Source: Squalus acanthias
Lineage: Eukaryota
Direction: 5' to 3'
DNA: 64,000 nt
Assembly: GCA_030390025.1 (NCBI GenBank)
Contig: CM059431.1
Span: 116,252,001-116,316,000, forward strand
The position numbers and the translations under genes are program-made. Below the pieces are notes generated by a model. The model saw only the letters and a list, made by a program, of their open reading frames with translations. It did not search any database and was not told the origin of the DNA. Of the stretch, positions 19,305 to 44,575 are shown piece after piece. Within the stretch, counting starts at the first letter, position 1, and each line of letters begins with the position of its first letter.

Positions 19305-22300
19305 GTCAAGAATGGAATTACCGCCCAATAAGTCTACTCTCAATCATCAGCAAAGTGATGGAAGGTGTTGTTGACAGTGCTATCGAGTGGCACTTACTCA
19401 CCAATAACCTGCTCACCGATGCTCAGTTTGGGTTCCGTCAGGACCACTTGGCTCCAGACCTCATTACAGCCTTTATCCAAACATGGACAAAAGAGTTAAA
19501 TTCCAGAGGTGAGGTGAGAGTGACTGCCCTTAACATCAAGACAGCATTTGACCGAGTGTGGCATGAAGGAGACCTAGTAAAATTGAAGTCAATGCGAATC
19601 GGGGAAGAAGTCTCCACTGGCTGGAATCATACCTAGCACAAAAGAACATAAGAACATAAGAACATAAGAAATAGGAGCAGGAGTAGACCAATCGGCCCCT
19701 CGAGTCTGCTCCGCTATTCAATGAGATCATGGCTGATCTGATCCAACCTCAACTCTAAAGAACACAAGAAGTAAGAGCAGGACCAGGCCACTTGGCCCCT
19801 GGGCCCGCTCCGCCACCCACAGGGCCTTGACCGATCCGAACTCAAACTCATGTCCAATTTCCAGCCCGCTCCCCATCACCCCTGATTCCCTTTACTTCTA
19901 GGAAACGGTCTATTTCTGTTTTAAATTTATTTAATGAAGTAGCTTCCACAGCTTCCTGGGGTAGCAAATTCCACAGACCCACTACCCTCTGAGTGAAAAA
20001 GTTTCTCCTCATCTCAGTTTTAAAAGAGGAGCCCCTTATTCTAAGATTATGTCCCCTAGTTCTAGTTTCACCCATCATTGGGAACATCCTCACCGCGTCC
20101 ACCCGATCAAGCCCCTTCACAATCTTATATGTTTCAATAAGATCGCCTCTCATTCTTCTGAACTCCAATGAGTAGAGTCCCAATCTACTCAACCTCTCCT
20201 CGTATGTCCACCCCCTCATCCCCGGAATTAACCAAGTGAACCTTCTTTGTACTGCCTCGAGAGCAAGTATGTCTTTTCTTAAGTATGGACACCAAAACTG
20301 TATGCAGTACTCCAGGTGCGGTCTCACCAATACCCTATACAACTGCAGCAATACCTCCCTGTTTTTATATTCTATCCCCCTAGCAATAAAAGCCAACATT
20401 CCATTGGCTTTCTTGATCACCTGCTGCACCTGCATACTAACTTTTTGATTTTCTTGCACCAAGACCCCCAGATCCCTTTGTACTGCAGTACTTTCCAGTT
20501 TCTCGCCATTAAGATAATAACTTGCTCTCTGATTTTTCCTGCCAAAGTGCATAACCTCACATTTTCAATATTGTATTGCATTTGCCAAATCTCTGCCCAC
20601 TCACCCAGCCTGTCTATATCCCCTTGTAGGTTTTTTATGTCCTCCTCACTCTCTACTTTCCCTCCCATCTTTGTATCATCTGCAAACTTTGATATGTTAC
20701 ACTCGGTCCCCTCCTCCAAATCGTTAATATAGATTGTAAAGAGTTGGGGACCCAGCACCGACCCCTGCGGAACACCACTGGCTACTGGTTGCCAGTCCGA
20801 GAATGAACCATTTATCCCAACTCTCTGCTTCCTTTTAGATAACCAATCCTCCACCCATGCCAGAATATTACCCCCAATCCAGTGATTTTTTATCTTGAGT
20901 AATAATCTTTTATGTGGCACCTTGTCGAATGCCTTCTGGAAGTCTAAATACACTACATCCACTGGTTCCCCTTTATCCACCCTGTACATTATGTCCTCAA
21001 AGAACTCGAGCAAATTTGTCAGACATGACTTCCCCTTCATAAAGCCATGCTGACTTTGTCCTATTAAATTATGTTTATCTAAATGTTCCGTTACTGTCTC
21101 CTTAATAATAGACTCCAAAATTTTACCCACCACAGATGTTAGGCTAACTGGTCTATAATTTCCAGCCTTCTGCCTACAACCCTTTTTAAATAAGGGTGTT
21201 ACATTAGCAGTTTTCCAATCTGCCGGGACCTTTGCTGAGTTCAGGGAGTTTTGGAAAATTATTACCAAAGCATCCACAATTCCTACTGCCACTTCCCTCA
21301 ACACCCTAGGATGTAAGCCATCAGGTCCAGGGGATTTATCCGCCTTGAGTCCCATTATTTTACTGAGTACCAATTCCTTAGTGAATTTAATCGTATTTAG
21401 CTCCTCCCCCACTAGAGCCCCCTGTTTGTCCAGTGTTGGGATATTCTTAGTGTCCTCTACCGTAAAGACTGAAACAAAATATTTGTTCAGCATTTTTGCC
21501 ATCTCCATGTTTCCCACCATTAATTTCCCGGTCTCATCCTCTAAGGGACCTACGTTTGCCTTAACCACCCTTTTTCTTTTTATATAACTATAGAAACTCT
21601 TGCTATCTGTTTTTATATTTTTTGCTAATTTATTTTCATAGTCTATTTTCCCTTTCTTAATCAATCCTTTAGTTACTTTTTGTTGTCTTTTGAAGACTTC
21701 CCAATCTTCTATCCTCCCACTAACTTTGGCTACCTTATATGTCCTTGTTTTTAGTTGGATACTTTCTTTAATTTCTTTACTTAGCCATGGATGGCTGTCA
21801 TTTCTTTTACACCCTTTTTTCCTCAGTGGAATATATTTATTTTGAAAGTTGTAAAATAACTCCTTTAATGAACACCACTGCTCATGTACCGTCTTACCCT
21901 TTAATCTATTTTCCCAGTCCACTTTAATCAATTCTGCTCTCATGCCATCATAGTCTCATTTATTCAAGCTCAGTATGCTTGTTTGAGAACCAACCTTCTC
22001 ACCCTCTAATTGGAAGGTGGTTGTAGTTGTTGGAGGTCAATCATCTCAGCCCCAGAGCATCGCTGCAGGAGTTCCTCAGGGCAGTGTCCTGGGCCCAACC
22101 ATCTTCAGCTGCTTTATCGATGACCTACCCTCCGTCATAAGGTCAGAAGTGGGGATGTTCGCTGATGATTGCACAGTGTTCAGTTCCACTCGCAACTCCT
22201 CAGATAATGAAGCAGGCCATGCCCGAATGCAGCAAGACCTGGATAACATTCAGGCTTAGGCTGACAAGTGGCAAGTAACATTCGCGCCACACAAGTACCA

Positions 22301-23050
22301 GGCAATCTCCAACAAGCGAGAGTCTAACCACCGCCCCTTGTCATTCAATGGCATTACCATCACCGAATCCCCCACAATCAACATCCTGGGTGTCACCATT
22401 GACCAGAAAATTTACTGGACCAGCCACATAAATACTGTGGCAACAAGAGCAGGTCAGAGGCTGGGTATTCTGTCGCGTGTCTCACCTCCTGACTCCCCAA
22501 AGCCTTTCCACCATCTACAAGACACAAGTAAGGAGTGTGATGGAATACTCTCCACTTGCCTGGATGAGTACAGCTCCAACAACACTCAAGAAGCTCGACA
22601 CCATCCAGGACAAAGCAGCAAGCTTGATTGGCACCCCATCCACCACCTTAAACATTCACTCCCTCCATCACTGGCGCAACGTGTCTGCAATGTGTACCAT
22701 CTACAAGATGCACTGCAGCAACTCGCCAAGGCTTCTTCGGCAGCACCTCCCAAACCCTCTACCACCTAGAAGGACAAGGGCAGCAGGCGCATGGGAACAC
22801 CATCACATGCAAGTTCCCCTCCAAGTCACACACCATCCTAACTTGGAAATATATTGCCATTCTTTTATCGTTGCTGGGTCAAAATCCTGGAACTCCCTCC
22901 CTAACAGCACTGTGGGAGTACCTTCACCACATGGACTGCAGCGGTTCAAGAAGGCGGCTCACCACCACCTTCTCAAGGGCAACTAGGGATGGGCAATAAA
23001 GACTGGCCTTGCCAGTGATGCTCATTTCCCAGGAATGAATTAAAAAAAAG
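19305..23050 (+). mobile_element. CR1/L2-group LINE (family B), split by a younger CR1: pieces 19305-19641 and 22012-23050
   Basis: QFGFRQ..AFDRVWH upstream of the insert continues as GVPQGSVLGPTIF, FADD, ILGVTID and MEYSPLAW downstream. 3' end with AATAAA and A tail. Confidence 0.85.
19642..22011 (-). mobile_element. 5'-truncated CR1 LINE, ORF2 RT with one frameshift (ORFs 20417-21943 and 19848-20552)
   Basis: KSPGPDG, NYRPVSLTS, QHGF, LDFQKAFD, GVPQGSVLGP, KFADDTK, RPHLEYC and FFTQRVV motifs; (TTCTTATG)n tail. Confidence 0.92.
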
Positions 23051-23830: not shown

Positions 23831-25513
23831 TGTAAAGTTTCGCAATTATCGCGATTCAAAATAACGAAAGAGAAACAGATTCGTTTGACCAGTTTATTTA
23901 AATGAAATGCTGTCATGATTATAAAGGACACAGAAGCCTGTAAAATGGCCGCCACGCATCGTGGCAGAAGCTTCCAGAATTTCAGTGGGCAGACAAGATG
24001 GCGTTCGAATATACATTTCAAATATAAGACGGGATCATACTCGATGAGCACTGATAAAGACAGGATGCAACCTGTTTGCATTTGTGACAATAGCAAAAGA
24101 TATAAGTGCTGGAATCGTTTTCCATGCACAAGTAAGGACCATTGTACTGGGCAATCGAAGGCCCATCCAGACACATCAATACACAAATACCCCCACGGCT
24201 CTACAATGAGAGAGCCATTCTCGGGTGATTAAACAAGCATTCGGGGGCCCCCAAAACCAGTCAGGTAGATGATTCATACGATCCTGGCTGGGCCAACAAT
24301 GGGGAAAACATTAACGGGTAGTTGGCCAGTTTCAGGTGCTACCGAAACCTGTTAAGGACAAGAATCGCCCCATGCTGGGAGTTTTGAGCGCCAATATTTC
24401 ACAAAGGACAAACATTAAGATTTGGGTGGGAGATAAGGGAACACAGCACTATAACTATAGTGAACAAATGTCCATCGCGCTCTTATTCTCTTATCTCGCT
24501 GCTGACTGCGGAGGGTTTATTCTCTTATTCGCTTGTGACTTCATGGACTGGCTTGACTGGTGAGCTTCTGTGTTTTCTCTGGACTCTGTTGACTATGTTG
24601 GGTGGAGCTCAAACGGAACGAGCCGCCTCAACGAGGGCCAGTGACCGGGTGCACCATCCCGAGGGTCGGTAAACGGTGTCTGGACCCGAAGGCCCGAAGA
24701 GACGAGACGAGACGAGAAGAAGAGGAGAAGAATCCACGTGCCGCCACGGTCAGTAAACCCCGACCATGCCCGAAAATACACGAAATAACTTTTCATTGAA
24801 GTCCCCCGACAACCGGTGTCGGGGACAGGGAGACTCTTTTTCGAATTCTACCGGCAACCGGTGTCGGACACAGGAAGACTCTCCTTCGAACCGTGTCCGA
24901 GTTCTGTCGAGTTCTTCTTGACAACGGGGAGCCTGGCCTGCTTGCCGCAGCAGCGAAGATAAACAAGTGGGGTACAGAGACCCCTCAAAACACGTGACAG
25001 TCAGGCGCTGCAGCGAAACGAGCCGAGTGCCTCACTTTAAAAAATTCTCCGAAGTATCACGAGTGGTGAGCATGTTTCCCGATCCTACAAATCTAGATGT
25101 AGTGTAGGTATTGATAGGGGAGGGTGGTTTTATTAAGGATAAAGTATAATGTGTTCCCCTTTTTACGATATGCCGTGCGTTCTTCATTACCATAGACCAA
25201 GCTTTATGAATGTATGTATACTTGTACTCTCGTTAATTTGCGCCTATGACATGTACTTCATGATCTTGAACGCTATGCAGTAAAGATTTCCATTTCGTAC
25301 TATTCAACCGGGTCTATTTGAGTATTTCTCTGCATTACTGCTCTCGCACCTAAGTCCAGTCTCAGAACCGTAAGGGCGAGTGGGTCGAACCACTCACAGG
25401 TGCTTATTGCAACAAGGCTGGCCGGAGACCAGAGCAAGCAATAGTATTAGGCAACGAAGGCCTAACCTCGCACCAGCACCGTCTGCGATACAAGCACGAC
25501 ACAAACCCTTACA
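23831..25513 (+). repeat. 5' LTR (1683 bp)
   Basis: Colinear direct repeat of 34887-36569 (offset 11056), TG...CA ends. Confidence 0.97.
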
Positions 25514-25517
25514 GAGA

Positions 25518-27338
25518 ATGGCGACCATGAAGGGACACTGGCAGCGAGAGAGTAATGTTTTAGACCCTGGTGTGAATAGGCGAAATGTGATGGATGAGAG
25601 GGTAGCCGACTATGTGTTTGGGAAGGTTAACTTAACCAAAAGGTGGATAAGTGACCTACTGATGGATAAGTGTCCACTAGACGCAGCCATCAAATGGACA
25701 GGCAGTAAAGAGCATAAGAAGTCGGTGGAGAAAGCGGTCTGGCTGATGTGCTACAAGAAGCAAGTCCAACTTTCGGACCAGGTCATTGTGGCACAGGCAG
25801 CTCAGATCAGGGAATTGGAAGTTGAGATGGAGGAAAAGGTCACGGGAGGACAGAAACTCATTGCATCCTTGAATGCGTTACATCAGGAACGCCAGATAGT
25901 AGCCAACCACCATGAGGCAAAAATTGATTACCTAGAGTGTCAGGTCACGGAAGCAAAATTGAACGAGGGTAGGATTAGAGAACGGTGTGCCCGCCTAGCG
26001 AACCAGATAAAAGCCCAAGAAGAATGCTTGAAGGGAGTTAGGGTGGCATATAAGATGGCCCTCGAGGATAGGCATGAGGGAGCCGACCACAGTGTTTGCC
26101 AGAAGGAGATAGGGAACCTAAGAGAGGCCCTGAATAAGGCAAACGGCTTGGTGTGCCTCATCAGCCCGTCAGCAAACCAGCCACAGGTGGGTAGGGAATT
26201 CCAAAAATCCCTACCAGACAAAGCAGAGGAGGTATTTGCCACTGTGCCCTCCGCGCCACCCAGCTATTCGGCAACCTGGGTAAGGGAGGAAGTGGTGGAA
26301 ATAGAGAAGGAGGTTCCCGAGGTAGGACAATCCCCGGAGGTAGAGTCGAGCCCGGGACCGATGTGTCCGCTCCGAGGTCACAGAGAGGCCCGAATGCAGC
26401 CAATGGGGATGACGGGGATGTCCTGAACCAGCTTGTATTGCCCCACAGCTCACACCAGCTGAGAGCAATGATTAGCCATGTACGGAAGCTGTCCGAGTCA
26501 GACGACCCTTCGTAAACTTTAGGAGGTAGAACAGACCGCAGCAATTAATGGCTGCGACGATGCGGATAAGACCAAAATGTTGCTGTTCTCGTTAGATAGC
26601 TCGATCCATCAGTGTCTCTCAGACGAGAGCAAGAAGGGAAATAAAACCTATGGGGAGTTACGGGACGAGGTCCTAGAAGTGTTGGGGGCGGATGACGAAG
26701 GTCCGTTCGTCAGATTGTGTCAGACCGTACAGATGGAGGGAGAACCCCCGAAGGTTTTCGCCGACAGGCTGTGGCCAGTATACCAGCATAGCTGCCCAGG
26801 CACGCCAGGGCGCGATTATCTGGACGGTGCCGGTTTAACTCATTGGCTCAGGTGTTTAGTAGCCAACAGTTTGCCAGCCGTCAGGGAGCAGGCCAAAGCG
26901 TGGTTTGATCCCACTAACCCCGCCACAACAGAGGAGTCTGTCCTAAATCGACTCACCATAGGGTATCGGAACACTAGGAGCATGGGAGCGCGTCCCCTTA
27001 AGGGAAAGGTGCATGAGGCACGGCCCGCAGCCCCGGCTCAGAAAGAGTGGCATCAGGAGGGAAACCGCGCCCCACAAGCCAGTGGTGCTTGTTACGGGTG
27101 CGGGAAGACAGGTCACTGGCGTAAGAACTGTAGGAACCCCTGGAAGGACCCCAGGGATAAAAATCCCGCAGCCTGAACCCAAGCGCCTGTCTCTGAGAGA
27201 GGAGCTGGTGTGCCTATCCATCCCGATGCGATAGAATCAATGTTGGGAGCTATGCGGTCCCTTATGATTTCGCAAGGAAGGGTGGCAGTCGCTACCGGCC
27301 TCACAGATGCCGCAACCCCGTCCACCGGTACCCAATGA
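25518..27338 (+). pseudogene. gag: gag (coiled-coil N-terminus, late domains, capsid-like region, CCHC zinc knuckle), disrupted
   Basis: ORFs 25380-26426 and 26577-27176; PSAPPSY; CYGCGKTGHWRKNC. Frameshift(s) at ~26380-26520 and a premature TGA at 27174. The frame continues to TGA 27336. Confidence 0.85.
25519..25536 (+). promoter_or_regulatory. Primer binding site, tRNA-Arg-type
   Basis: TGGCGACCATGAAGGGAC, 5 nt after the LTR. Complementary (17/18, one G:U) to the 3' end ...GTCCCTTCGTGGTCGCCA recalled for vertebrate tRNA-Arg(UCG). Confidence 0.75.
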
Positions 27339-27342
27339 CTAG
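27336..27342 (+). promoter_or_regulatory. Candidate gag-pol stop-codon readthrough signal UGA-CUAG
   Basis: CAA TGA CTA GAG; the protease LLDTGAS (27438-27458) is in the same frame with no intervening ATG before codon +24. Confidence 0.65.
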
Positions 27343-30300
27343 AGCCCGTGCAGCCCGTCTATCTGTGTCCGCTCAGCTATGATGCGTGGAAAAGACCCCT
27401 GGTTGAGATGGAGGTAGAGAAGCAGAAGGGTAGTTATTTGTTGGACACGGGAGCTTCATGCACCGTGATTCATACGGATAGCCCCTTTGACTCACCACTG
27501 TCTACCAAGGTCCATACACATTAGCGGGGTTCACGGGAAAAGAGCAGGCTGGCGCGTTCTCCATTCCGCTTTCCATTCATTTAGGAGCACTCCACACCAC
27601 ATGGAAGTGTATACTGATGAAATGGCAGGAGGGGGGTGGCAGAGGTATCCTCGGATCGGATCTCCTATCGGAACACGGGATCCTCGTGGACCTTAGGAAT
27701 CACTGTCTCTGGGGAGCCAAGGGTGGAAAAGGCAAGGTAGTGGTAATCCCAGGGAAGGAAGGTAAAGGGGCTCTGTGTACCATGAAGCCATCCGGAGGTT
27801 ACGACCTCGGGCTTATGGTCGCGGATGTCCCAACGGACATGCAAACGTACGTGTCAGATAATATGCACGCATTTGCAACCCACAAGCACGATTGTGGTAG
27901 GGTTACCGGGTTTGAGGTCAGCGTAGACGGGGACCCCATGACCCGGCCCCAAAAGCAGTATAACTTCCTCAAAGAAGCAGAACCCGATATGGAGACAGCA
28001 ATGTCCTCATTGGTGCAGCAGGGCGTGTTGAGGCCGATAGCCACACACGTGAACTCCCCATTATGGCCGGTGAGGAAGCCGGATAATTCGTGGAGGGCCA
28101 CGATGGACTACAGAGTCCTTAACAGTAACATCCCCGCCTGCGCGCCCACAGTAGCAGCAGTTGCTGACCTAATAGGGAGTATCCCAGCGTCCGCGACCAC
28201 GTTCACGGTGCTGGATATCTCGAACGGTTTTTGGTCCATCCCGCTGCGGCGAGAGGACCAGTACAAGTTTGCCTTTACTTTCAAAGGTCAACAGTACACA
28301 TGGAACTGTTTGCCACAGGGTTTCCACAACAGCCCCAGTATTTTCCACCAGTGTATGGTAGGAAGTTTAAAGGAGTTTAGTCAGCCCAATCAGATAGTGC
28401 AGTACGTGGATGATTTGCTCCTGTTCACCGACTCAAGGGAGGAGCATGGACCACTGCTAGCCGAGTTATTGGAGCTGCTAGCGAGAAAGGGTTTTAAAGT
28501 GAACCCTAAGAAAGCACGTATCGGTCAGCAGGAAGTAAAATTCCTGGGTCTGACCATTCGCGCTGGGGAAAGAGCCAAAGATAAGGCTAGGAGGGAGTCG
28601 GTGCAGGAGTTACCGATTCCCAACACCATAACGGGTGTGAGGTCCTTTCTGGGACTGACCGGTTACTGTAGAGACTTCATCGAGGACTATGCGGCCACAG
28701 CAGCTCCGCTGCTCCGACTCCTCCATAAGGGAGTGGAGTGGTCTTGGGACGAGGGTTGCCAGGCAGCATTCGAGAAGTTAAAAAGGGATTTGCAGACCGC
28801 GCCAGCTTTAGGGGCCATAGATGGGGGGAAGGAGTTTTTCCTGGAGGTAGCTGCCAGCGGAGACAGCTTGAGCGCCGTGCTGCTCCAAGAGCGTCACGGC
28901 AAGCTGCGGCCGGTTGTCTATTCGACCAGGGTGTTAACGGATGTGGAGAGGAGTTTTTCCAACTGCGAAAGGCATCTCTTAGCCACGCATTGGGCTGTGA
29001 AAAGATCAGCGATCTTCACAGGGCTCTCTCCCATCACTCTCCTCACCCATCACACACCAACTAAGATGCTTCTAGATGGGAGGATTAAGGATGGGACTGT
29101 AAGCAGCGCTTGTATTGCATGCTGGACCCTTCTCCTTTCCCAGATGGATCTTAGAGTTAAAGGTCTTTGCGAGCCCAAGCTCGCGGCCAACTTGGTATAC
29201 CCCGGAACAGCCCACCGGTGTTCGGTGGAAGGGGTGTGGGAGGTCAACATAGGTTTGCGGGCCGGGATACATCCCACAGGTCGCGAGATTTATGTTGATG
29301 GTTCCAGCACAGTGTCCGCTGGCGAACGACTCACAGGGTGTGGAGTTTATGACACTGCGGCAGACCTTGCCCTGGCAATTAATCTCTCCAGCACCATGAG
29401 CGCGCAGCAGGCTGAGCTGTCTGCGGTGGCGTACGTCGTTACCCACCCAGAAATCTTCCCAACCCCATACACGATTTGTTCGGACAGTATGTTTACGTGC
29501 AATTCCTGTACGGAATACCTGGCCATTTGGTCCCGCCGTGGCTACACCTCCGCGGACGGGCGACCTTTAACGGTGAAGCCCTTGCTGGAAAGGATCCTAG
29601 CAGCAGTAGGGGAGGAAGGGGAGATTTTCATCCATAAGGTGAAAGCTCACTCCTCCACAGAACCCCGCGGGGAGGGCAACCAGCACTAGCCAGGGAGGGT
29701 GCCCGTAACGGCATTTTCTGGGACCCCTCTGGACCCGGACCCGTGGCAGCGATCCAAGGCAGGGAAGGGAATCCCAGGAACACCAGGGTAGCACTGCCTC
29801 TAGACCTTAAGACCGTCCAGAACCAGGATCCCGCCCTAAAAGCAGTTCTCAGAACGATTACTGAGGGCAAGCAGGTAGAGGGCCCGTACAGTACGGCAAC
29901 CCTCTCCGTTAAAGAAGGCATGCTGTTCCGCGAGGAACAGTGGGTTGTGCCGCAGCAGCACAGGAGGGAATTCCTCCAGTTGGCTCATGAGGGGCCGGGG
30001 GCAGGACACCCCGGGCCTGAGGTTACCTGGCAACGGGTAGAGCAGGCGGGATGGTGGCCGGGACTCAGGGAGCAGGTCCGCGAGTTCTGTGCTAGCTGTC
30101 TCGTGTGCGCAGCAAACAACCCAGACCCCCAGAAAAGGAAAGTGCACATGGGACACATCAGGAGGGTGGAGGGACCATGGCAGTCGATACAGATCGATTA
30201 CATAGGGCCCCTGCCCACCACCCAGGGAGGCTACAAATACTGCCTCGTCTTGGTGGATGTGTTTTCCAAATGGGTAGAAGCCTTCCCCTGTAGAACAGCT

Positions 30301-31818
30301 ACGGCGCTGGGTACAGCCAAGATCTTGGTTCGGGAAGTGTTCTCGCGGTGGGGACTCCCCCGTTTCGTGGAGTCAGACCAAGGGAGTCATTTCACCGGCC
30401 AGGTGATGCAGAACACCCTCATGCTTTTGGGCATTGAAGGGAAGTGGCACGTAGCGCACAATCCCCAGTCATCCGGGATTGTTGAACGCATGAACCGGAC
30501 CCTAAAGGAGAAGCTGAGGAAAGAGACTATGAACTCGCCCCAAAAATGGGCGGAGGTTCTGCCTCTAGTCCTCATGGGGATCCGGGCCAGTCAGTCGAAA
30601 AGTACGGGGTATTCCCCGTACGAGGTGATGACTGGGAGGATCATGCGAACCCCCACCAATGTACTAGCCCCGGTGCTCACTGAGGTTCAGCTCCAAGAGG
30701 TGAAACGGGACAAGTTTGTCCAGACCCTCTTGGAGCGCCTGAAGCAGGTTTACGAGCAGGCAGCTGGGAACATGGGAAGACAGCATCAGGGCAATCGCCT
30801 GTTGCTGGAACCCCACAAGAAACGGGAGTGGGAAGTCGGTGATCAGGTCATGGTTAGGAACTATGCCAGAGTAGGGAGTTTGGAACCACTGTATATGGGG
30901 CCCTACAGTATTGTAGATAAGGCGAGTCCCATGGTGTACGCCGTAAAGGTACCTCGGCGCACGAAATGGTTCCACATCAACCAGTGCAAGCTGTATAAAC
31001 CGGGTGCACAGGGGCCAATCACGGGGGCCAGACCTGCGAGTGGGGACTCGCAGCCCCGGGTAGGACCACAGGGCACACAGACCGTTAAAGCAGCCTGCTT
31101 GAGGGGAGAGGACATTCTAGAAAAGTGTAGGATCTTTTCTTGAGGTTGGGATTCAGATGAGGAAGAGCTCGAGGAGCTCGACCACGTTAGTGACCCGATC
31201 GGAGAGGTGCTGGGGTCGGAGGACGAAAGTTTCGTCCTCGACCCAAACTCAGGGGAGATAGGGGCTGCGAGTGGAGATCCACACATGGTGGAATCAGAAA
31301 GTGCAGATCCCGAGCCCAGGGGGGCGGGGCCAGGGGAGACGGAGCCAGCGGCTCTGGTAGGACCACAGGTCGTGACGGTGGAAGTCTCGGTACCCGGTCC
31401 GTCGGCCCTGGAAATCTTGCCCTTGGGGGAGGTAGGGATTGCGAGTGGAGGACCACATACTGGGCCAAGTAGGGTGGAACCAGAAGCTGCAAATCCCGAG
31501 TTCAGGGGGGCGGAGCCAGGGGAGACGGAGCCAGCGGCTGTGGTGGGACCACTGGCCGTGACGGTGGAAGTCTTGGTTCCTGGTCCATCGGCCCTGGAAA
31601 TCTTGCCCAAAGTAGCCCTCCGTAGGTCAAGTCGGACACCCCAGCCCAGGAAGTCGTGGTCAAGTCCCCCGTGCACCCCCAGGCGTAAGTTCAAGGTCAA
31701 GGCAGCCCAGGGAGATCCCAGTCCCAGCGCAGCGGCGACAGGCTGCGGCAGATCAAAGGAAGGGGTCAGTGCCCTCCCACCATTGGGAAAAGCTCGTGGC
31801 AGCCTTCGCAGAATTTAG
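27339..31818 (+). pseudogene. pol: pro-pol: aspartic protease, RT, degenerate RNase H (tether), RNase H, integrase, long C-terminal extension
   Basis: LLDTGAS and GILGSDLL; NSPLWPVRKP, LDISNGFW, LPQGFHNSP, YVDD; FLEVAAS..ERHLLA; IYVDGS, SAQQAEL, SDS, KVKAH; H..GHPG..C..C, IDYIGP, SDQGSHF, ERMNRTLKE. Frameshifts at ~27510 and ~29685, TGA at 31141. Confidence 0.93.
31255..31608 (+). repeat. Imperfect ~186-bp in-frame tandem duplication in the integrase C-terminal extension
   Basis: PGETEPAA.VGP..VTVEV.VPGPSALEILP occurs twice; GAAATCTTGCCC at 31411 and 31597. Confidence 0.85.
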
Positions 31819-32096
31819 GTAGGCCGCCCTGGGAACGGGCGGCGCTGTACAGTTTAAGTTTAGGATAAGTTTATAAGTTTAAGTTTATAGTTTTTATGTC
31901 AGGTTAAGTTTGTAGTTTAATTTTAACAGAAAATGGTAAAATGATGGGAGTTAGAGATAGGAATAGTTAAAGTCTATCCAGCATACATGTCTTTTTACGT
32001 GAGATGAGGTCAAGGGACCCACTCACCCTTCACAAAAGCCAGAGACTCTTGGGAGGCTGGCTACATCATTTTATCTGATCACAGGAACCAGGAAAG

Positions 32097-34446
32097 ATGG
32101 AAAGGATTCTGATAGTGCTCGCAACGATCGGATATGGATTGGCCTATCGGGGCCTCACCAAGGATGTCGTTGTGTTTGGTTGCTCCGGGGACACGGGTCC
32201 CATCGCGACAGATGGGACCGGGGAGCGAAAGGCTGAGGAAACCGCCACTTATTTCCACAAGGGAAGGTGGCCCGGATGGCTGGGAACGAATTCAACGGAA
32301 TACTCCAGCGCATCCGGATTTGCCTATAAAGAGATTTCTATACTTTGCCCAGAGTGAGGATCATTGCACCCAGAATCAGCGTCACCGTCGGCAAAAGGAT
32401 ATGTTTGACATGCAATGGGAAGGTCCCATTGAGCCGATGGTGGTAGTTACGGAAGTTAAGCAAGACTATGAGAAATTCCTCGGTTGAGTGGGAGCGATTG
32501 GGTAACAATACCCATCGGACAATTACGGGGACTAACGGACAATTGAAAGTCTGTTGGGACAAATGGTGGGAACCGGATGAGGGAATATATGTTTGTATGT
32601 GGGGGCCGAAGTACGTTTGCCCCAAGGGTATATCCATATTTTTCGTACACCAGTGGCAGGATAACGGGAAAGGGATGAGGTGGGATGTCAGCACAAAGGG
32701 GTGCGGAGCTCCATTCTCCCCGATCCTGGTAAACGCCACTGAACTCATCACGCGCCCACGCAAGGCTCCGCCCACGATTCCGGTGGTTTTGGCTCAGGAG
32801 GAAGGGTGTCGTAAAGCCACTAAGGGGCCCGGGAATGGTTTGGTACTGGTCCCAACAGACCAGATACTATTTCAAGGGGTACATTACGCGGTGGCTTCGG
32901 TGATTCTAAATCTCACCGAGGTGCAGTTACCAGAGTGGTGCCCCAAAGAGACGGAACAATTGTACCAGGTCCTGTTGACAAACATGTTCAGACAATTCTA
33001 CGAGTTTGATTTTGTGGAGATTGACAAAACAAGCTTGTACACCACACCACACGAAGTTTTGGGTCAGGTGGGGAGACAAAGAAGGGGTATTGTGAACGAT
33101 ATGTTCACTGCCTTTAATACAGGAACATCTGTCGTCAACGCTCTAGACAACGTGGAGCTGCAGACCCAGATCAATGGTTTAAAAACACAATTAAAAAGCA
33201 TCCTCACAAGCGAAAACAAGGTAGTAGGGTCTGAGTTACATGAGGACCAGGCCATGACGTTACACTTAAAAGAAATTATAGCAGAGCTGGAGAAGCATGC
33301 GAGAACGGTAAATGCCCTGATCAGGGAAGATCGGAACGCATCCGATCAAGCTGCGCAGAACGAGGTGTGCGTACTATACGGGGCGTGGTTACTGGGCGAG
33401 GGCCGCAGTAATTTGGAGGATTTAAAACAAGGTTTGGTCCCGTCCTGGATAAGTAACAAACACCTGCAGGCGCTCCACCCTTTTCAGAATGCATTAATCC
33501 GTGCCAGCTCAGGCTAGCCTCAGAGGCATACCCAGTCCCCGTGGACTGCAGACGGTCAAACCATACCATCATGGGTATAGTACTACGTATGCCGGTGTTG
33601 GGCGACACAGCAAAGCCCGCACCGGTGTATCGGGTGGAGAACATTGGTGTCATTCAGGGGGGAGCCCACATTCGCTACGCAGTGGTCCCACCTTACGTCA
33701 TCCACTGGGAGCAAACGATGACAGGTACCGACCTATCGGGTTGTCGTGGCCAGGGAGCACACATCATCCTGTGTCCCCAGCACTTGAATGCCTTTTTAAC
33801 ACCACAATGTGGGTTCAGAACGGCTGGCGCCAAGCCCATGAATTGCACCATGGAGGCAATGACACAAGATCATGTGCCTCCGCCGGTGGCATACATAGGG
33901 GGTGGAACATATTGCGTTACCACTGCAGCGCAACACTACCAGCATGGAAACCACAGCCGGTGTCCGGTGAGTGACAGCAGTTTCTGTTTTAAATCCAGGG
34001 CTGAAGTTCAAGTGGCACAACAGCGAATTGTCCCGATCCCTGAACCATCCACTGTTCATCTTACAATAAAAGAGAATTTCACAGACTTGCAGCGGTTCGT
34101 CGCGCATTTCGGATACATCATTCCCCCTCTCCCTGAACACCTCGCCAAGCTTTTGAAAGCCGTTGCGGTATCGCAAAAACATTTTTACACCCTGGAACAG
34201 AAAACAGTAGAAATAGGGACAGAAATTTTGGACATAGTGATCCCACCGTGGTGGGATCTGTTCACTAATATTGAAGTTCCGTCATGGATCAGGATAGCCT
34301 CCCACATTTTAGTTGTGTGCCAAGTCATAATAGTAGTGTACCTATTGGTCGTGCACTGCAAGAGAGGCAGACGCCTCACAAAGCAGGAGAACACAGGGGA
34401 GTGGAGAGAACGTTACGTGCGCGTGAACGAGGAAAGTTCCGCGTGA
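32097..34446 (+). pseudogene. env: env: signal peptide, Ig-like domain, class I fusion (F-like) glycoprotein with TM anchor; disrupted
   Basis: Hydrophobic N-terminus after a CAG|G acceptor at 32084; furin RQRR (33074-33085) followed by GIVNDMFTAFNTGTSVVNALD; heptad region; Cys-rich region; TM IASHILVVCQVIIVVYLLVV; basic tail. Frameshifts at ~32350 and ~33490, TAG at 32444. Confidence 0.88.
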
Positions 34447-34874
34447 AAGGCCAGGATGACGCCTGCTCCATTTTACCATGTGTGTCTTGTAATGGAGTGT
34501 TTTAGTTATGTAGATGTGTAACTAAGTTTGGAATTTTTGTACGTTAAAAAGAGTTGTTTTGAAGATTGGAACTTTTGTATTTTTAAAAGAGTTGTTTTGA
34601 TTATTTTTTCCTTGTATAATAAAACATGCACATACAGGTGGTGCGAGAGGCATCGGCCTGTTGCACTTGGAAGGCGTATACGCAGTGTAAGTTTAAAGGC
34701 AATACTGCCTACGGTTGGTCCAAGTTTTAAACAATGTAATTTCCCTGGGAAATGAGGACGGCATGGAGACCATAGATAGTTTTTAAGTTAAGGGAGTGTT
34801 TGGATGTGGAGAATCGGGATAATTTTTGCTCACCACCACTTTTAATTGATACGATAAGCGGAGTTATTCGCATC

Positions 34875-34886
34875 AACAGGAGGGAC
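34875..34886 (+). promoter_or_regulatory. Polypurine tract
   Basis: AACAGGAGGGAC immediately before the 3' LTR TGTAA. Confidence 0.7.
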
Positions 34887-36569
34887 TGTAAAGTTTCGCA
34901 ATTATCGCGATTCAAAATAACGAAAGAGAAACAGATTCGTTTGACCAGTTTATTTAAACGAAATGCTATCATGATTATAAAGGACACAGAAGCCTGTAAA
35001 ATGGCCGCCGTGCATCGTGGCAGAAGCTTCCAGAATTTCAGTGGGCAGACAAGATGGCGTTCGAATATGCATTTCAAATATAAGACGGGATCATACTCGA
35101 TGAGCACTGATAAAGACAGGATGCAACCTGTTTGCATTTGTGACAATAGCAAAAGATATAAGTGCTGGAATCGTTTTCCATGCACAAGTAAGGACCATTG
35201 TACTGGGCAATCGAAGGCCCATCCAGACACATCAATACACAAATACCCCCACGGCTCTACAATGAGAGAGCCATTCTCGGGTGATTAAACAAGCATTCGG
35301 GGGCCCCCAAAACCAGTCAGGGAGACGATTCATACGATCCCGGCTGGGCCAACAATGGGGAAAACATTAACGGGTAGTTGGCCAGTCTCAGGTGCTACCG
35401 AAACCCGTTAAGGACAAGAATCGCCCCATGCTGGGAGTTTTGAGCGCCAATATTTCACAAAGGACAAACATTAAGATTTGGGCGGGAGATAAGGGAACAC
35501 GGCACTATAACTATAGTGAACAAATGTCCATCGCGCTCTTATTCTCTTATCTCGCTGCTGACTGCGGAGGGTTTATTCTCTTATTCGCTTGCGACTTCAT
35601 GGACTGGCTTGACTGGTGAGCTTCTGTGTTTTCTCTGGACTCTGTTGACTATGTTGGGTGGAGCTCAAACGGAACGAGCCGCCTCAACGAGGGCCAGTGA
35701 CCGGGTGCACCATCCCGAGGGTCGGTAAACGGTGTCTGGACCCGAAGGCCCGAAGAGACGAGACGAGACGAGAAGAAGAGGAGAAGAATCCACGTGCCGC
35801 TGCAGTCAGTAAACCCCGACCGCGCCCGAAAATACAAGAAAGAACTTTTCATTGAAGTCCCCCGACAACCGGTGTCGGGGACAGGAAGACTCTTTTTCTA
35901 ATTCTACCGGCAACCGGTGTCGGACACAGGAAGACTCTTCTTCGAACCGTGTCCGAGTTCTGTCGAGTTCTTCATGACAACGGGGAGCCCAGCCTGCTTG
36001 CCGCAGCAGCGAAGATAAACAAGTGGGGTACAGAGACCCCTCAAAACACGTGACAGTCAGGCGCTGCAGCGAAACGAGCCGAGTGCCTCACTTAAAAAAA
36101 TTCTCCGAAGTATCACGAGTGGTGAGCATGTTTCCCGATCCTACAAATCTAGATGTAGTGTAGGTATTAATAGGGGAGGGTGGTTTTATTAAGGATAAAG
36201 TATAATGTGTTCCCCTTTTTACGATGTGCCGTGCATTCTTCATTACCATAGACCAAGCTTTATGAATGTATGTATACTTGTACTCTCGTTAATTTGCGCC
36301 TATGACATGTACTTCATGATTTTGGATGCTATGCAATAAAGATTTCCATTTCGTACTATTCAACCGGGTCTATTTGAGTTTTTCTCTGCATTACTGCTCT
36401 CGCACCTAAGTCCAGTCTCAGAACCGTAAGGGTGAGTGGGTCGAACCACTCACAGGTGCTTATTGCAACAAGGCTGGCCGGAGACCAGAGCAAGCAATAG
36501 CATTAGGCAACGAAGGCCTAACCTCGCACCAGCACCGTCTGCGATACAAGCACGACACAACCCCTTACA
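34887..36569 (+). repeat. 3' LTR (1683 bp)
   Basis: Direct repeat of the 5' LTR. AATAAA at 36335-36340 (AGTAAA in the 5' copy). Confidence 0.97.
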
Positions 36570-37929
36570 CCACTTGGCCTGAACACTGAACTTGACCTTG
36601 ATTCCCTATGTGCAACGCCATGAAAGATCGACTAGTTTACATTGAGCTCCACTATTTTTAAGCCAGCATTGAGAATGGACAGGTTACTACCTCTATGAAA
36701 ATAGCTGAGTGAGGACATTTGATGTGAGTGCATTTAACATTCATATGATAACATTACTCAAGAGTGATTTCCAAGCTATTATGCATGTTGATGCTGTTGA
36801 ATCAAGTGCCAACATTAGATTAATAGAAACTATTTGATGCTATTTTATACTGATTTTAAGGAGATGATTAAAAACAAGTGTGTTTTTTGTTTAATCTTTG
36901 TTTTTTACTACCCTGAATAAATGAGACAACATATGCAACTGTCCAAAGATTAGAATTTTACAATAAAAACAGTAAATAAACTCAGTAAAACCAGAAAAAC
37001 AAACATAGGTTTCAACAACCTGAAGAGAATATGAGTGTGACTTTCCCTCGACCAAATCTTACCAGCCCTCAGACAGCAACAACAACAACTTGTATTTATA
37101 TAGCGCCTTTAACATAGTAAAACATCCCAAGGTGCTTCACAGGGGCGCTATAACAACACAACACACCAAAAGAAGCAGTTTAGGTCAGCTTTGAGAACTT
37201 GGCCAAAGCACCTCACAAATTTCATGCTCAGCGTGCTCTAGTTAGAACCTCTTATACTTTTCCCTGCTATCTTGTGCAGCTGACGATAAAAGTCATCTTT
37301 CCTGAAGGTTTGGTGTCTCGTGCATTTATTGATTGCTATAGTCCCCTGTTCTACCATTGGAATATTCACAATGCTGTATCAAAGTTAAAAGAATAGAGAT
37401 CTACAATGGTCTTCTTCTTAAGGATGTATCTGTGCTTATTTTTTACTTTTTTGAAGAAATATTTATTTTTCTAAAGTTAGCTTCGACATAATTAACCATA
37501 AAGTGTATTGTCTGCCGATTAGAGCAGCAACTTCACATTTTCAAAGATAAGGAGTGAAACATACTGTCGGCAATATTACCGGATGATGTTTTAACTGTAT
37601 GGTGATTAATTCAGTTAAAATAAGTGCGCACAGACCTGCATTAAAACAGCAGAAGACTGTCATCTAAACATTCTCTTTTGGTTAACGCTGCATAGCCACT
37701 GAAATGATGCCATGTGTAGCTGTACAATTCATCGCATCTCATGTTGCGCACTGTTTTTTTCGAGGGGGAGGGGAGCAATGAAGAAAATAAATAAACCAGC
37801 CAAAAGAGGAAAAAAAATCAAAGATCACAGACTCAACAGGAATGACTCTGTGACCGGGTGCTCCCAGCGATGAGCTGCACTCAGGGAGTGATGGTCAGAG
37901 AATTGGACTACAGTGTCGTACCTTTCCAT

Positions 37930-40287: not shown

Positions 40288-41042
40288 TTCTGATTCTGAT
40301 TGTCTGACAGTTTATACAGTTCAGACCCGTGGAACAGACAACACAAAACCCAATGAAGCTGTGAAACTTCTTTACTTAAAAATCAACAAGAGGTTACAAG
40401 TAATTACCAGAATACAAACTGTACTCAATTCATGTACTTATTACAAGCAAACATCTAAAATCATTGACTTTAAGCTCAGGTGATTATAAGCACCACATAC
40501 GTACTAACACCAGATGAGAGGTCAATTCAACGATGACTAGACGTATGACTTTAACTGGCAACTGACCAGGTCACCATCGACTATAGCCCCGAATGTCAGT
40601 TTACAACATCCCTTATACCCCAAAACTTGGCAACTCGCTCACAGCATTCGTGTTCCAAACTGTGATTAACGTTGTTTTTCTCTCTCTCCTTCTACTATCT
40701 GTTTTGACACTTAGTTAACCAAGGCCAGACATTCAAGGATTGGAGAGAGTCGTTGTTTTCACATGTCCAGGTTGTTGATTTGTGGTTCTCACAGAATTTT
40801 CAAGATCTTATCTTTTGAAGGAAAAATACCAGCACATCATGCTTTAGTCAAGCAGTCTCTTGCCCTCAACGCTTGTCGGTCCATTTGGTCACATTTAGAT
40901 TCAGTCAAGTTTACCATGGACAGTGTTACATAATCCACCCTCAAGTGTCTGAACCTGAATTTATACGTTGTCGTCGTCCTCTTCTTTCCAGGTCTTCTGT
41001 AACAGCTTGACCAAATGCTTGCTGCTTGCGGCGTCTGTTGAC

Positions 41043-43425
41043 TCAACAAGTTATTATCAATAAGTATAAAACAATCACCAACTGAACTACGACTAAAACA
41101 TGGGAGGTAATTCTTATCCAGGGGTGAACCTCGATATTCATACCGATATCCCACCAAGATGAATCATCCCCAATCTTAGATATTTCTTTGCGCAAGTTCC
41201 GTTTTTTCTGGGCCAAAGTATAAAAGTGCTTTTGAGACTGACTAACTCGCTGCATTAACTCGACCAGGTGTTCTGGTAGAGGTGGAATGTCACAGCTGAA
41301 TTGAATCACATACTGGTGTAATTGCTCTTTTAATTCATCTTCTACAGCGATATCTACTTGCCTATGTGAATAAATGCTTAATAAAACCAGCGCCCCAAGT
41401 CTTACAGGTTGGACTGGGATAAAGCAAAAAGTTCCCACCGCAATGGGACAAGTCAGGTTGTTACCATACTGGTATTCCTGGTGTATGGTGGTGACACAAT
41501 ATTCACCTTTCCCTCGGTGCACAGATTGTACGGGGAAAAGCTTTCCTACAGCTACTTTCATGGTGCAGTTCCATTCTACCCCATCCCAATCAAATCCGCA
41601 CGCAGGGGCTGCAAGTTCTACCACATCATAAGGGCAGACGAATGTGTCCCGAGTTTGAGCGCACCCGGTAAGATCTTGGGCCACCCATGTGATCCCATCT
41701 ACCCGGGTCACATACTGCGGGGGTGCGTCATACCTTACAAAGTGGTCTCCCTGATGTATTCCAATATTCTCCACGCGGAATAGAGGATTTGGAGTTGCCT
41801 TTTCGTGTAGGATGGAATAATACAATACCATCCCTTATAAGGTGATGTCATTTTATTCCTGCAAATGACATTCGTGTTTTACCGGGTACACTTGTACCAA
41901 CCCCCTGACTTTACACATAGTTATGGTAAATTGATAAGTGGACATTGCCCTCAGGTGTCGATCAGTCACCCACAAGGGAAGCTTCCCCTCAGCAATGCGC
42001 TGCAGGTTTTCACGGGCTTGTTCCCCTAACCAGGATCCATACATTACACAAATATCATTTTGCGCGGCCTCACTAGAGGCATTCAGATTCTCCTTTAAAA
42101 TTTGGTTTATCTTTTTCGCATGGGATTCTAAATGGTTAACCATGTCCTGCAGATGAATGGTCATAATTTGGTCCTCCTTCAATTCCTCTTGTTCCAGACC
42201 ATTCATTTTATTCAGAATTTCCTTTAGACGATTTCTAAACGCCTTTACGGATTGATCCAAATCAGCCAAATCAAGGCTATTAACGAGGAAGGTTCCGGTA
42301 TTAAAAGCAATGGCTGCATCATTTATCAGACCCCGTCGTGTTCTGATATGGTCCCCTTTAACCCTGTAACTGATGTTGTTTGCTTCAATGGCTCAGTATT
42401 TTCCCCAAAGTTATTGTTAAATCCATTACCATCTCCTGAGCCCTTGCGATATAACGATTCTGCCAGTGTTATGCTGGCCCTTTCCCAAAATCCTTCCATT
42501 AATTCCCGCTCCATTCTCCCATATAAACGCGCTGTTTCTAGTTTGCACCAGTTCGGTATTCCCACCTCGGTCAGATTTAATATTACAGGTACCACCTCAT
42601 GATGCACATCATGATACAATACATCCGAGTTGGGATTACCATGAACCCATTTGTCGGCCCCGGAGAGTGTTTGGGACAGACAACCCGGGTTTCCTGTTGT
42701 TCTTCCCGTGGTTGTGTTTTATTCGTGGGGGGGGAGTTTAGGACAGACTTTCAATTCCACCGTGTGTATATTCCGGTTTTACATTCCTGCACATGATAAT
42801 GTGGGCAACCCTCCAAACCCCTACACGGCCTTCCCTCCCTGTCCACGGACCATTGGTAGGGACCCCTGTCATCTATTCCATACACTTAGATACCTTTCCT
42901 GCCTATCCAGTGGACGGGAGCTCCACAGAGCGGCTCTGCGGATATAAAACTATGGTTTGATAGCATCCCCGAAGGGTTTACACATCCATAGATTCCCTCA
43001 TGCTCCTGCCACCACCATGGCCAACATAACAGGGTGTCTCCCGCTGCTCGGGATTGGGTCGGGCTTCCTACATTCCCCCGAGGGTTCCCTATCTGATAAT
43101 GCCTTGAATGGTTACCTGGTTCTGCTTGTAAAAACCACACCCTTGGCCCGGTGGGGCGATCTTTGCATTTTATGCAGACCCTCCCTACCTTCCTGGACCT
43201 CATAAGTGGTAACCCATACTGTCGCTGAACACGCGGTTTCACAATCACCCTTGATGTACTGGAGGGTAATGTTTCCAGTGGTGTCCCGGGGTGGTGTCTC
43301 CGGGGTAACTGCAATCGAACTATTATAGGGAAAATAGTTAGTGTTGGTCCAGTATGCCGAATAGGCTGACAGGAATCTTTGAGATAAAGCAGAATCCCGA
43401 TCATTGGCCAGAATAATTCCTTCAT
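41043..43425 (-). pseudogene. env: env of second provirus (Ig-like domain plus F-like fusion protein)
   Basis: MKELFWPMIGILLYL signal; VILNLTEVGIPNWC; RTRR|GLINDAAIAFNTGTFLVNSLD (42333-42344); NDICVMYGSWL; FRVENIG; PPLPEHL; SQKHFYTL; WIRITSHVLVVVQLVIVLYLLI TM. Confidence 0.88.
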
Positions 43426-43522
43426 TTTATACAGTTCAGGCTCTCAATACTGATGTATTTTTAAAACAAAACAAAACGGGACTTCCTACTTTTCTTTTTC
43501 TGCATCGGGGAATTTTCGACTC

Positions 43523-44575
43523 CTACCACTGATGATACCTCAAGGGTGTCTTTTTATTTCTTTTACTACGTCGTGGGGTAGGAGGGGTCTGTTGGACTCG
43601 TCTGCGGATAGGAGGTGGTTCCGGGCCTGGGGATGAGGAGGTTTCTACAGCTCCCATGTCCTGTCCACCTTCATTTGAATCACTGTACCTGTGGAGGCAC
43701 CACTTCAGGCAAGGGCGCCTCATTGGGTGGGGGTGTCCCATTAGACACCCCTTCATCATCATCCCACCGGAGAGGATAAATCTGGCTCACCACGCTCATA
43801 ACCGTGGCTTGTTTTGGACCTGCTAGTGGGTTGAAAAAGCTTCATCTGGTTAATATGAAATCATTTGATTTCCTCAGGTAACTGAACCGCGTATACCATA
43901 GGACAAGCTTTGTCAATAATGTTATACAGCCCCTTGTAGAGGGGTTCAAAACCTCCCACCCTCGCATAGTTTCGTACCATTACCTGGCTCTCTACTTCCC
44001 ACTCCTGGGGTTTACTCGGAGCCACGTGTAGTCGGTTGCATTGGTGTGCCTTCCCAATGTTGTGGGCGGCCCTCAGGTTCTGTTCTTTTAAAGTTCCCCA
44101 CAGGTCACTCAGGGATTTGTCCCTAGTCACCTCCTTAATTTGTTTATCAGTCAGAGTGGGGACCAACAGGTGTGTGGGGGTTTGCATGGGTCTCCCCGTT
44201 ACCAATTCATGAGGGGAATGACCCGTTCCATTGGATCTGTTACTACGTATCCCCATTAGGATTAGGGAAATTACCTCATCCCACTTAGTGTGATGTTCGT
44301 TTAATTCCTTTCGCAAGGCGAACTTCAATGTACGGTTCATTCTTTCCACAATTCCCGATGACTGCGGGTTGTGGATCACATGCCATTTCCCTTCAATTCC
44401 AAGCAATTTCAGAGTGGCTTGCATTACCTGACCTGTAAAATGACTTCCCTGGCCTGACTCTACCACGTGAGGAAGTCCCCATCTGGAGAATACCTCTCTA
44501 ACTAGGGTCTTGGCCATCCATGAGGCTGTGGCCGACTTGCACGGGAAGACTTCTACCCACCTGGTAATCTTGTAC
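43523..44575 (-). pseudogene. pol: Integrase remnant with C-terminal extension
   Basis: LVREVFSRWGLP..VES.QGSHFTGQVMQ, NPQSSGIVERMNRTLK, VMVRNYARVG nearly identical to 30330-30960; PRRSKR tail. Confidence 0.88.

Follow-up and report, generated by a model that had tools for sequence, protein, structure and literature searches.

A probable F-type fusogen as the envelope protein of a provirus in Squalus acanthias that is probably related to snakehead retrovirus

A stretch of 64,000 nucleotides of Squalus acanthias DNA (GCA_030390025.1, contig CM059431.1, positions 116,252,001 to 116,316,000, forward strand; here the window, in whose own numbering positions are given) carries a complete provirus at 23831-36569 on the plus strand, with gag, pol, and env between two long terminal repeats (LTRs). 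We propose, at a probability of about 85%, that this is a dead endogenous retrovirus (ERV), most likely related to snakehead retrovirus (SnRV), and that its envelope protein (Env) is an F-type (class Ib) fusogen. Judged from predicted models, the Env family to which it belongs very probably works like an F protein.

The env gene and the predicted fold of its product

The env gene (32097..34446, plus strand, as are the features below unless noted) comprises about 780 codons, 2347 nt from the ATG at 32097, and is broken at three places: a frame change near 32348-32354, a stop at 32444-32446, and a frame change within 33478-33496. The first-pass annotation, made from the letters alone, had begun at 32830; the ATG lies upstream of that point, and so do two of the three breaks. 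A T-rich stretch at 32070-32090 with CAG at its end, just before the ATG, is a possible env splice acceptor.

The order of elements is that of an F protein. A signal-peptide-like hydrophobic start (32097..32165, judged by sight) and an N-terminal extension are followed by the part of the core that corresponds to F2 (32825..33073), in which 83 codons run from GPGNGLV up to the furin site; GPGNGLV at 32825 corresponds to position 204 of the intact relative P0089, which in most F chains is matched by residue 23-32. The furin-type cleavage site RQRR (33074..33085; R-X-K/R-R at the same place in relatives) stands directly before the fusion-peptide-like segment GIVNDMFTAFNTGTSVVNALD (33086..33148), an arrangement conserved in relatives; the segment starts with GIVNDMFTAF and is only moderately hydrophobic (mean Kyte-Doolittle [KD] value of 0.72 over 20 residues). 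Then come a long helical region covering heptad repeat A (HRA) and the domain III helices (33149..33440, approximate bounds; helices 314-371 and 374-406 in the relative), the Cys-rich beta domains I and II of the F fold (33517..34050, placed by predicted models and structure alignment), a membrane-proximal heptad helix (HRB; 34129..34257, model helix 207-238, with WWD at its end), and a single transmembrane (TM) helix (34294..34350; the most hydrophobic 19-mer starts at 34294, KD 2.64) with a 31-residue cytoplasmic tail. The motifs quoted in the first-pass annotation were all present where it had put them: LRMPVL (33583-33600), VYRVENIG (33625-33648), VPPYV (33685-33699), DLSGC (33730-33744), and LCPQ (33769-33780).

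From the furin site to the stop there are 1358 nt, or 452.7 codons, so the annotated distance of about 450 residues between RQRR and the C-terminus held, across one frameshift that the annotation had not mentioned. This 453-codon C-subunit holds HRA, the Cys-rich beta domains, HRB, and the one TM helix. The accompanying statement that retroviral TM subunits are much shorter was too broad, because F-type retroviral Env has already been published for lokiretroviruses (PMC7947760) and foamy viruses (PMC11468914). The part after cleavage measures 419 residues in foamy virus, 509 in SnRV, and 226 in a gamma-type control (L007); short TM subunits are a property of gamma/beta-type Env only. Neither CXXC nor CX6CC was found in the two window env pieces and six other proteins, and both are present in the control.

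Both subunits contribute to the woven domains of F, and for this reason P0089 was folded whole, besides the C-half of the window Env (20 rows), both as monomers. P0089 (754 residues) is homologous to both window env pieces (tblastn E 1.8e-44; 24% and 31% identity). Its model has a largely confident core, residues 66-193 having a predicted local distance difference test score (pLDDT) below 50. Foldseek matched it to the F proteins of respiratory syncytial virus (RSV; E 7.7e-11) and human parainfluenza virus 3 (hPIV3; E 1.3e-10); there were 264 matches at E<=0.001, and among the matches listed all 42 were paramyxo/pneumovirus F. VIA, which for P0089 re-aligned Foldseek's top 1000 and thus gave no independent rank to foamy virus Env and coronavirus S2, returned F in 50 of 50 rows; Z was 12.0 for hPIV3 F (296 residues aligned at rmsd 18.3) and 11.2 for postfusion Nipah virus F (290 residues aligned at rmsd 5.8). 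Residues 204-615 of the model lay on about 23-433 of F, that is, on the whole ectodomain, at 8-14% identity, and a nested domain I-II-III core is built from both subunits in the P0089 model; in this respect the window C-half alone is weak. The C-half model (pLDDT 70, predicted TM score [pTM] 0.35) also gave only paramyxo/pneumovirus F among the Foldseek matches listed (33/33), none significant, and in a wide VIA search foamy virus Env (8rm1) ranked second (Z 5.3, rmsd 2.1, 51 aligned, residues 122-181).

These matches bear out the earlier view of an Env core that is F-like rather than a retroviral surface-transmembrane (SU-TM) pair, with F proteins, and not TLV_coat/GP41-type or non-viral proteins, filling the listed Foldseek matches. 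The likeness extends to the F-type (class Ib) superfamily as a whole; the narrower parallel with morbilli- and paramyxoviruses did not stand, since other F-type proteins rank ahead. Among predicted viral structures, glycoproteins of invertebrate negative-strand viruses, fish filovirus GP, and baculovirus F preceded paramyxovirus F in matching P0089, and retroviral matches included the Envs of walleye epidermal hyperplasia virus 1 (WEHV-1; E 1.1e-8), walleye dermal sarcoma virus (WDSV; 2.9e-6), and feline foamy virus (1.3e-5). With three corrections, the identification of the core as F-type is supported.

Retroviral affiliation and competing explanations

The reverse transcriptase (RT) places the provirus most likely in the snakehead-retrovirus-related clade (Huo, class III; PMC6001957). 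Its RT is 52% identical to a Latimeria Pol, 51% to a Pyxicephalus Pol, 41% to SnRV (L001), the highest value among named viruses, and 35-37% to epsilon- and foamy viruses (the latter L006). L001/P0031 was recognized as SnRV by a by-eye letter match to the SnRV row in the supplement of PMC7947760. In an RT tree of 25 rows (18 RT segments from 17 of 60 Pol proteins, six viral contigs, and the window), the window grouped with SnRV and the Latimeria/Pyxicephalus proteins with modest support (85/88), inside a clade of retroviruses supported at 100/99, and grouping with epsilonretroviruses was rejected (p 5.7e-5). SnRV-like ERVs are known in a chimaera, and the available part of that paper does not discuss their Env fold (PMC4422223).

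The Envs of SnRV and an epsilonretrovirus also resemble the env family of the window. End-to-end profile scores were computed with a scoring of our own and expressed as block-shuffle z values from two runs. SnRV Env (L001, 6131-9532) scored 13.5 and 16.6. The epsilonretrovirus Env (L004, 5962-9648), of a virus that we take to be WDSV, scored 14.7 and 14.6. Foamy virus Env reached 4.6 and 3.4, and the gamma-type L007 about 1; none of 14 unrelated proteins scored above 3.0. With the beta block alone, z was 4.5 for SnRV, 5.3 for L004, 5.5 for foamy virus, and 0.2 for L007, and no control exceeded 2.4. SnRV Env gave no significant match by pairwise BLASTP, hhalign, or local hmmsearch. We found no paper that calls SnRV-like or epsilonretroviral Env F-type, in a search that covered subscription literature thinly.

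Several observations weigh against the F-type, SnRV-related reading. The strong structural evidence comes from a relative, and the P0089 model is a monomer with a mean pLDDT of 58 and a pTM of 0.41; the model made from the window Env itself has a pTM of 0.35 and is weak, its best Foldseek match standing at E 0.017 and no VIA match reaching a Z of 8. The two Pfam profiles named in the first-pass annotation, Fusion_gly and Baculo_F, had no match to the window env pieces (E<=1). Among 23 relatives, Fusion_gly had no match at E<=0.05, and Baculo_F matched one at E 0.0011 (18.1 bits, under the cut-off of 24.1); by sequence, the Env family is not a member of Fusion_gly. Single-sequence and profile searches of PDB with env yielded no F match, the best row of the profile search being a HERV-K chain at a nonsignificant E of 0.02. 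Only our own end-to-end scoring separates SnRV Env: in the local HMM search it came second, behind one of 2000 shuffles, and its hhalign probability was 4%. A position of the RT next to the foamy viruses or basal to the retroviruses was not rejected (p 0.228), in a tree without a lokiretrovirus row. The immunoglobulin (Ig)-like call for the N-terminal extension is sub-threshold, and this head region was modelled without confidence (pLDDT < 50, residues 66-193).

The alternative that fares best, which we nevertheless consider unlikely, is that the provirus belongs to the lokiretroviruses, of which it would be the first in cartilaginous fish, and simply carries a Loki Env. The best-named Pol matches are annotated as NYNRIN-like, NYNRIN presumably being the same as CGIN1. 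Loki integrase is closest to CGIN1, Loki elements have gag-pol-env with dual RNase H, and Loki Env carries an RXXR site and is related to the F family PF00523 (PMC7947760); the provirus shares gag-pol-env, dual RNase H, and an F-like env, its core-start motif resembles that of Loki Env by eye, and the basal RT position was unrejected. However, dual RNase H is common to all retroviruses, and the RT motif of the window is LPQGFHNSP, as in SnRV and other retroviruses, against xPFGY[A/S/I]N in 12 of the 12 Loki rows with a visible motif (12 of 24 published; PMC7947760 supplement), a pattern read off the published alignment and not a published criterion. In one complete and two partial Loki Envs the core follows directly on the signal peptide, with no 240-residue extension (by eye), and four chondrichthyan genome rows are unstarred in the table of PMC7947760, as is Pyxicephalus, the source of the 51%-identical RT. 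Thus, because of its non-Loki RT motif, its tree grouping with SnRV, and the lack of an N-terminal extension in Loki Env, the element is taken as probably SnRV-related, and it is probably not a lokiretrovirus.

Far less probable is that a paramyxo- or pneumovirus F gene was captured relatively late and took the place of a normal retroviral env in this lineage. The top solved-structure matches are all paramyxo/pneumovirus F, as such a capture would have it, but PDB is rich in these proteins, other F-type proteins come first among predicted viral structures, identity to F is 8-14%, and Fusion_gly has no match. Moreover, the hosts of the env family range from sharks and skates to frogs and coelacanth, and the family aligns with the Envs of SnRV and epsilonretroviruses.

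That this is an ordinary Env of the gamma/beta type, or not a viral protein at all, and that its F likeness is a coiled-coil artefact, can be set aside almost completely: the PDB profile search did return mostly coiled-coil rows (headed by the HERV-K chain at E 0.02) and coiled coils dominated the wide VIA search of the C-half, but CXXC and CX6CC are missing, the part after cleavage is twice that of the gamma-type control (453 versus 226), the P0089 match takes in the beta domains and the F2 strand (residues 204-615), and the beta block alone reaches z 4.5-5.5 with three F-type retroviral Envs as against 0.2 with the control, so that the modelled P0089 structure, through its Foldseek and VIA results, largely refutes this explanation.

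The N-terminal extension, the env family, and the provirus

About 240 codons lie ahead of the F-type core, and they probably carry an Ig-like domain (32348..32620, approximate bounds) in which the B-strand Cys, the C-strand Trp, and the DxGxYxC motif of an F strand (DEGIYVC at 32576-32596) were recognized. P0007, a 75%-identical relative, matched Pfam Ig_3 (E 0.091) and CD8 alpha (E 0.07), and 14 of its 17 PDB rows were of the Ig superfamily, all below threshold. The start of SnRV Env has a weak Ig V-set match (E 0.14), and UniRef calls the relative P0009 Ig-like. The Pyxicephalus Pol gene model P0030 ends (1214-1291) in a signal-peptide-like stretch and an Ig_3 match (E 0.012); this end is perhaps the start of that element's env. 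Although each of these matches is sub-threshold, an Ig head appears likely from all of them combined.

When 1.84 billion representatives were searched with the env C-half, 24 relatives were obtained at E<=0.001, 15 of them at E<=1e-10. The Cys/Gly pattern is kept across these relatives, and so it is not a product of chance. Names were found for 16 of 18 relatives looked up (Pristiophorus, Rhinoraja, Chiloscyllium, Heterodontus, Heptranchias, Mustelus, Pelodytes, Xenopus, and Latimeria), which spreads the family over sharks, skates, frogs, and coelacanth, those nearest to the window being from sharks and a skate. Four sequencing runs contained 3060, 4921, 142, and 996 contigs at 90-100% likeness to the env family; these counts are not copy numbers, and they point to a multi-copy family. 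No RNA run was listed for env, the RNA label of some runs being a guess, and this has no bearing on expression. Among 1031 candidates from a word-index search there was no longer relative of the C-half; of 8000 candidates in a profile search 2 were returned, and ESM Atlas yielded leads under 0.9 only.

Three relatives, P0089 (XP_072333160.1, Scyliorhinus), P0090 (XP_067889054.1, Heterodontus), and P0009 (GCC29952.1, Chiloscyllium), have an intact env of 739-754 residues, align without gaps, and are 85-88% identical (662/754, 627/739, and 630/734). We take the three genera to represent three shark orders. Since the gene is intact and 85-88% identical across these orders, it is a candidate co-opted host gene, and the sequences fit that interpretation; cross-species virus spread is a possible alternative source of the likeness. 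The gene models P0015 and P0006 join env-family pieces to host proteins (Heterodontus fbxo15 isoform X3 and a cadherin-domain protein) and may be annotation artefacts or exonised env fragments.

The provirus that carries the window env is bounded by LTRs of 1683 bp each, at 23831..25513 and 34887..36569, with TG...CA ends and a flanking 4-bp target duplication, CCAC, directly before the 5' LTR and after the 3' LTR. In the alignment of the two LTRs, 1645 of 1683 columns are identical (97.7%; 38 differences, no gaps, Kimura two-parameter distance 0.023). With the two rates used in PMC4422223, this divergence gives an age of roughly 5 to 50 million years. The gag region (25519..27176) is interrupted by stops and has a coiled-coil N-terminal part and a C-terminal zinc knuckle (zf-CCHC, E 7e-4). 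Five nucleotides past the 5' LTR, at 25519..25536, lies an 18-mer resembling a primer-binding site (PBS), for which we assume tRNA-Arg to be the primer; the PBS-like 17-mer was not found in SnRV with up to 3 mismatches allowed. Pol is in pieces (27363..31143), with protease, RT, tether, RNase H, and integrase (Pfam RVT_1 1.7e-35, RT_RNaseH 2.2e-15, RNase_H 2.1e-15, Integrase_H2C2 5.4e-18, rve 3.5e-16) and frame changes near 27506-27512 and 29647-29686. Past a stop in the integrase frame follows an acidic, Pro-rich open stretch of 224 residues (31144..31818), which is basic at its end and duplicated internally at a spacing of 186 nt; a Pfam search of it gave no match, and it probably forms the C-terminal tail of Pol or else a small accessory open reading frame (ORF). 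Because env is broken, and gag and pol as well, this copy is dead and unable to make the Env protein.

A purine-rich tract precedes the 3' LTR. An open stretch of 170 residues containing Cys (34776-35288) begins before this tract and continues into U3, with its 5' LTR copy at 23906-24232; its placement resembles that of accessory genes of some retroviruses. It has no Pfam match and no likeness to the 3' ORF of SnRV, and two shorter ORFs lie downstream of it within the unusually long LTR. The right flank of the provirus (36570-36740) is unlike the left except for the 4-bp duplication, and the neighbours are a LINE-like RT fragment (about 21987-22990) on one side and other repeats. A second provirus of the same family, truncated and degraded, lies on the minus strand at 40947-44568 and retains the integrase C-half (43831-44568) and env, which is about 36-44% identical to env of the main copy or its close relatives.

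Proposed mode of action, implications, and known F-type systems

By analogy with paramyxo/pneumovirus F and foamy virus Env, an intact Env of this family would form a type I trimer that furin cuts at RQRR, the 83-residue F2-like piece staying woven into the core after cleavage. On triggering, HRA would extend into a coiled coil, the fusion peptide would enter the target membrane, and HRB would zip back to yield a six-helix bundle. Retroviruses have no separate attachment protein, and for this reason we somewhat favour the idea that receptor binding and triggering of the core fell to the extension of about 240 residues and its Ig-like domain. In foamy viruses, which likewise lack a separate attachment protein, the receptor-binding domain sits inside the core (PMC11468914); unlike that insertion, the Ig-like module of the env family appears to be placed ahead of the core.

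F-type retroviral Env itself being already known, our results extend this envelope type to another retroviral branch. A tentative broader scheme, which we hold to be somewhat less likely than its opposite, is that the F-type fusogen is the ancestral retroviral Env, kept with differing receptor-binding modules in the loki-, foamy, snakehead-like, and walleye epsilonretrovirus lineages and lost to the gamma/beta type in other orthoretroviruses, with one member of the present family kept as an intact host gene in three shark orders. If true, the conserved shark gene would be an F-type co-opted env that gamma-type syncytin screens missed. Four scenarios were left open for the origin of env in Loki and other retroviruses (PMC7947760). 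An F-type Env in a snakehead-like shark retrovirus, together with the signs of such a fold in SnRV and walleye epsilonretroviruses, would mean that most of the deep branches of Retroviridae have this type of envelope, and the question of env origin would become testable by structure-guided trees. Viro3D expects further F-type cases in Retroviridae, the part available naming none, and one modelling study failed on epsilonretroviral SU. Published fish and shark env screens used gamma/beta-type queries or filters (10.1101/2021.11.23.469661; 10.64898/2026.05.06.723177) and are blind to a widespread F-type env class, one member of which, a shark gene, is a strong candidate for co-option. In literature of which the subscription part was thinly covered, we found no paper describing this conserved gene.

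Among known systems, the F proteins of paramyxo- and pneumoviruses (RSV, hPIV3, Nipah virus, and human metapneumovirus) share with the window Env the predicted ectodomain fold, the order of elements, and an F1-like length; they differ in working beside a separate attachment protein, in sequence (8-14% identity), and in that the window Env has a less hydrophobic fusion peptide and an N-terminal extension. Baculovirus F is among the structure matches of P0089. Errantivirus ENV is likewise an F-type fusogen with a furin site and fusion peptide, encoded on an LTR element, but errantiviruses are Ty3/gypsy elements of invertebrates (PMC13524379), whereas the window RT groups with retroviruses at 100/99. 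Lokiretrovirus Env offers the same series of signal peptide, RXXR, fusion peptide, coiled coil, and TM (PMC7947760); in contrast, the window has SnRV-like RT motifs, an Env with an extra N-terminal part of about 240 residues and a probable Ig domain, and no PF00523 match, and lokiretroviruses were not found in the chondrichthyan genomes screened, as far as the available part of PMC7947760 covers them. Foamy virus Env shares the F-type domain I-II-III core (PMC11468914; PDB 8RM1) and a long C-subunit (419 residues, L006). It has an N-terminal membrane-anchored leader and the receptor-binding domain inside the core (PMC11468914), whereas the window Env has a signal-peptide-like start, an extra domain before the core, and 83 codons from core start to furin site. 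SnRV, the named virus with the most similar RT (41%), and the walleye epsilonretrovirus have Envs that are collinear with the env family of the window but of greater length (1134 and 1229 codons between stops) and with other N-terminal parts.

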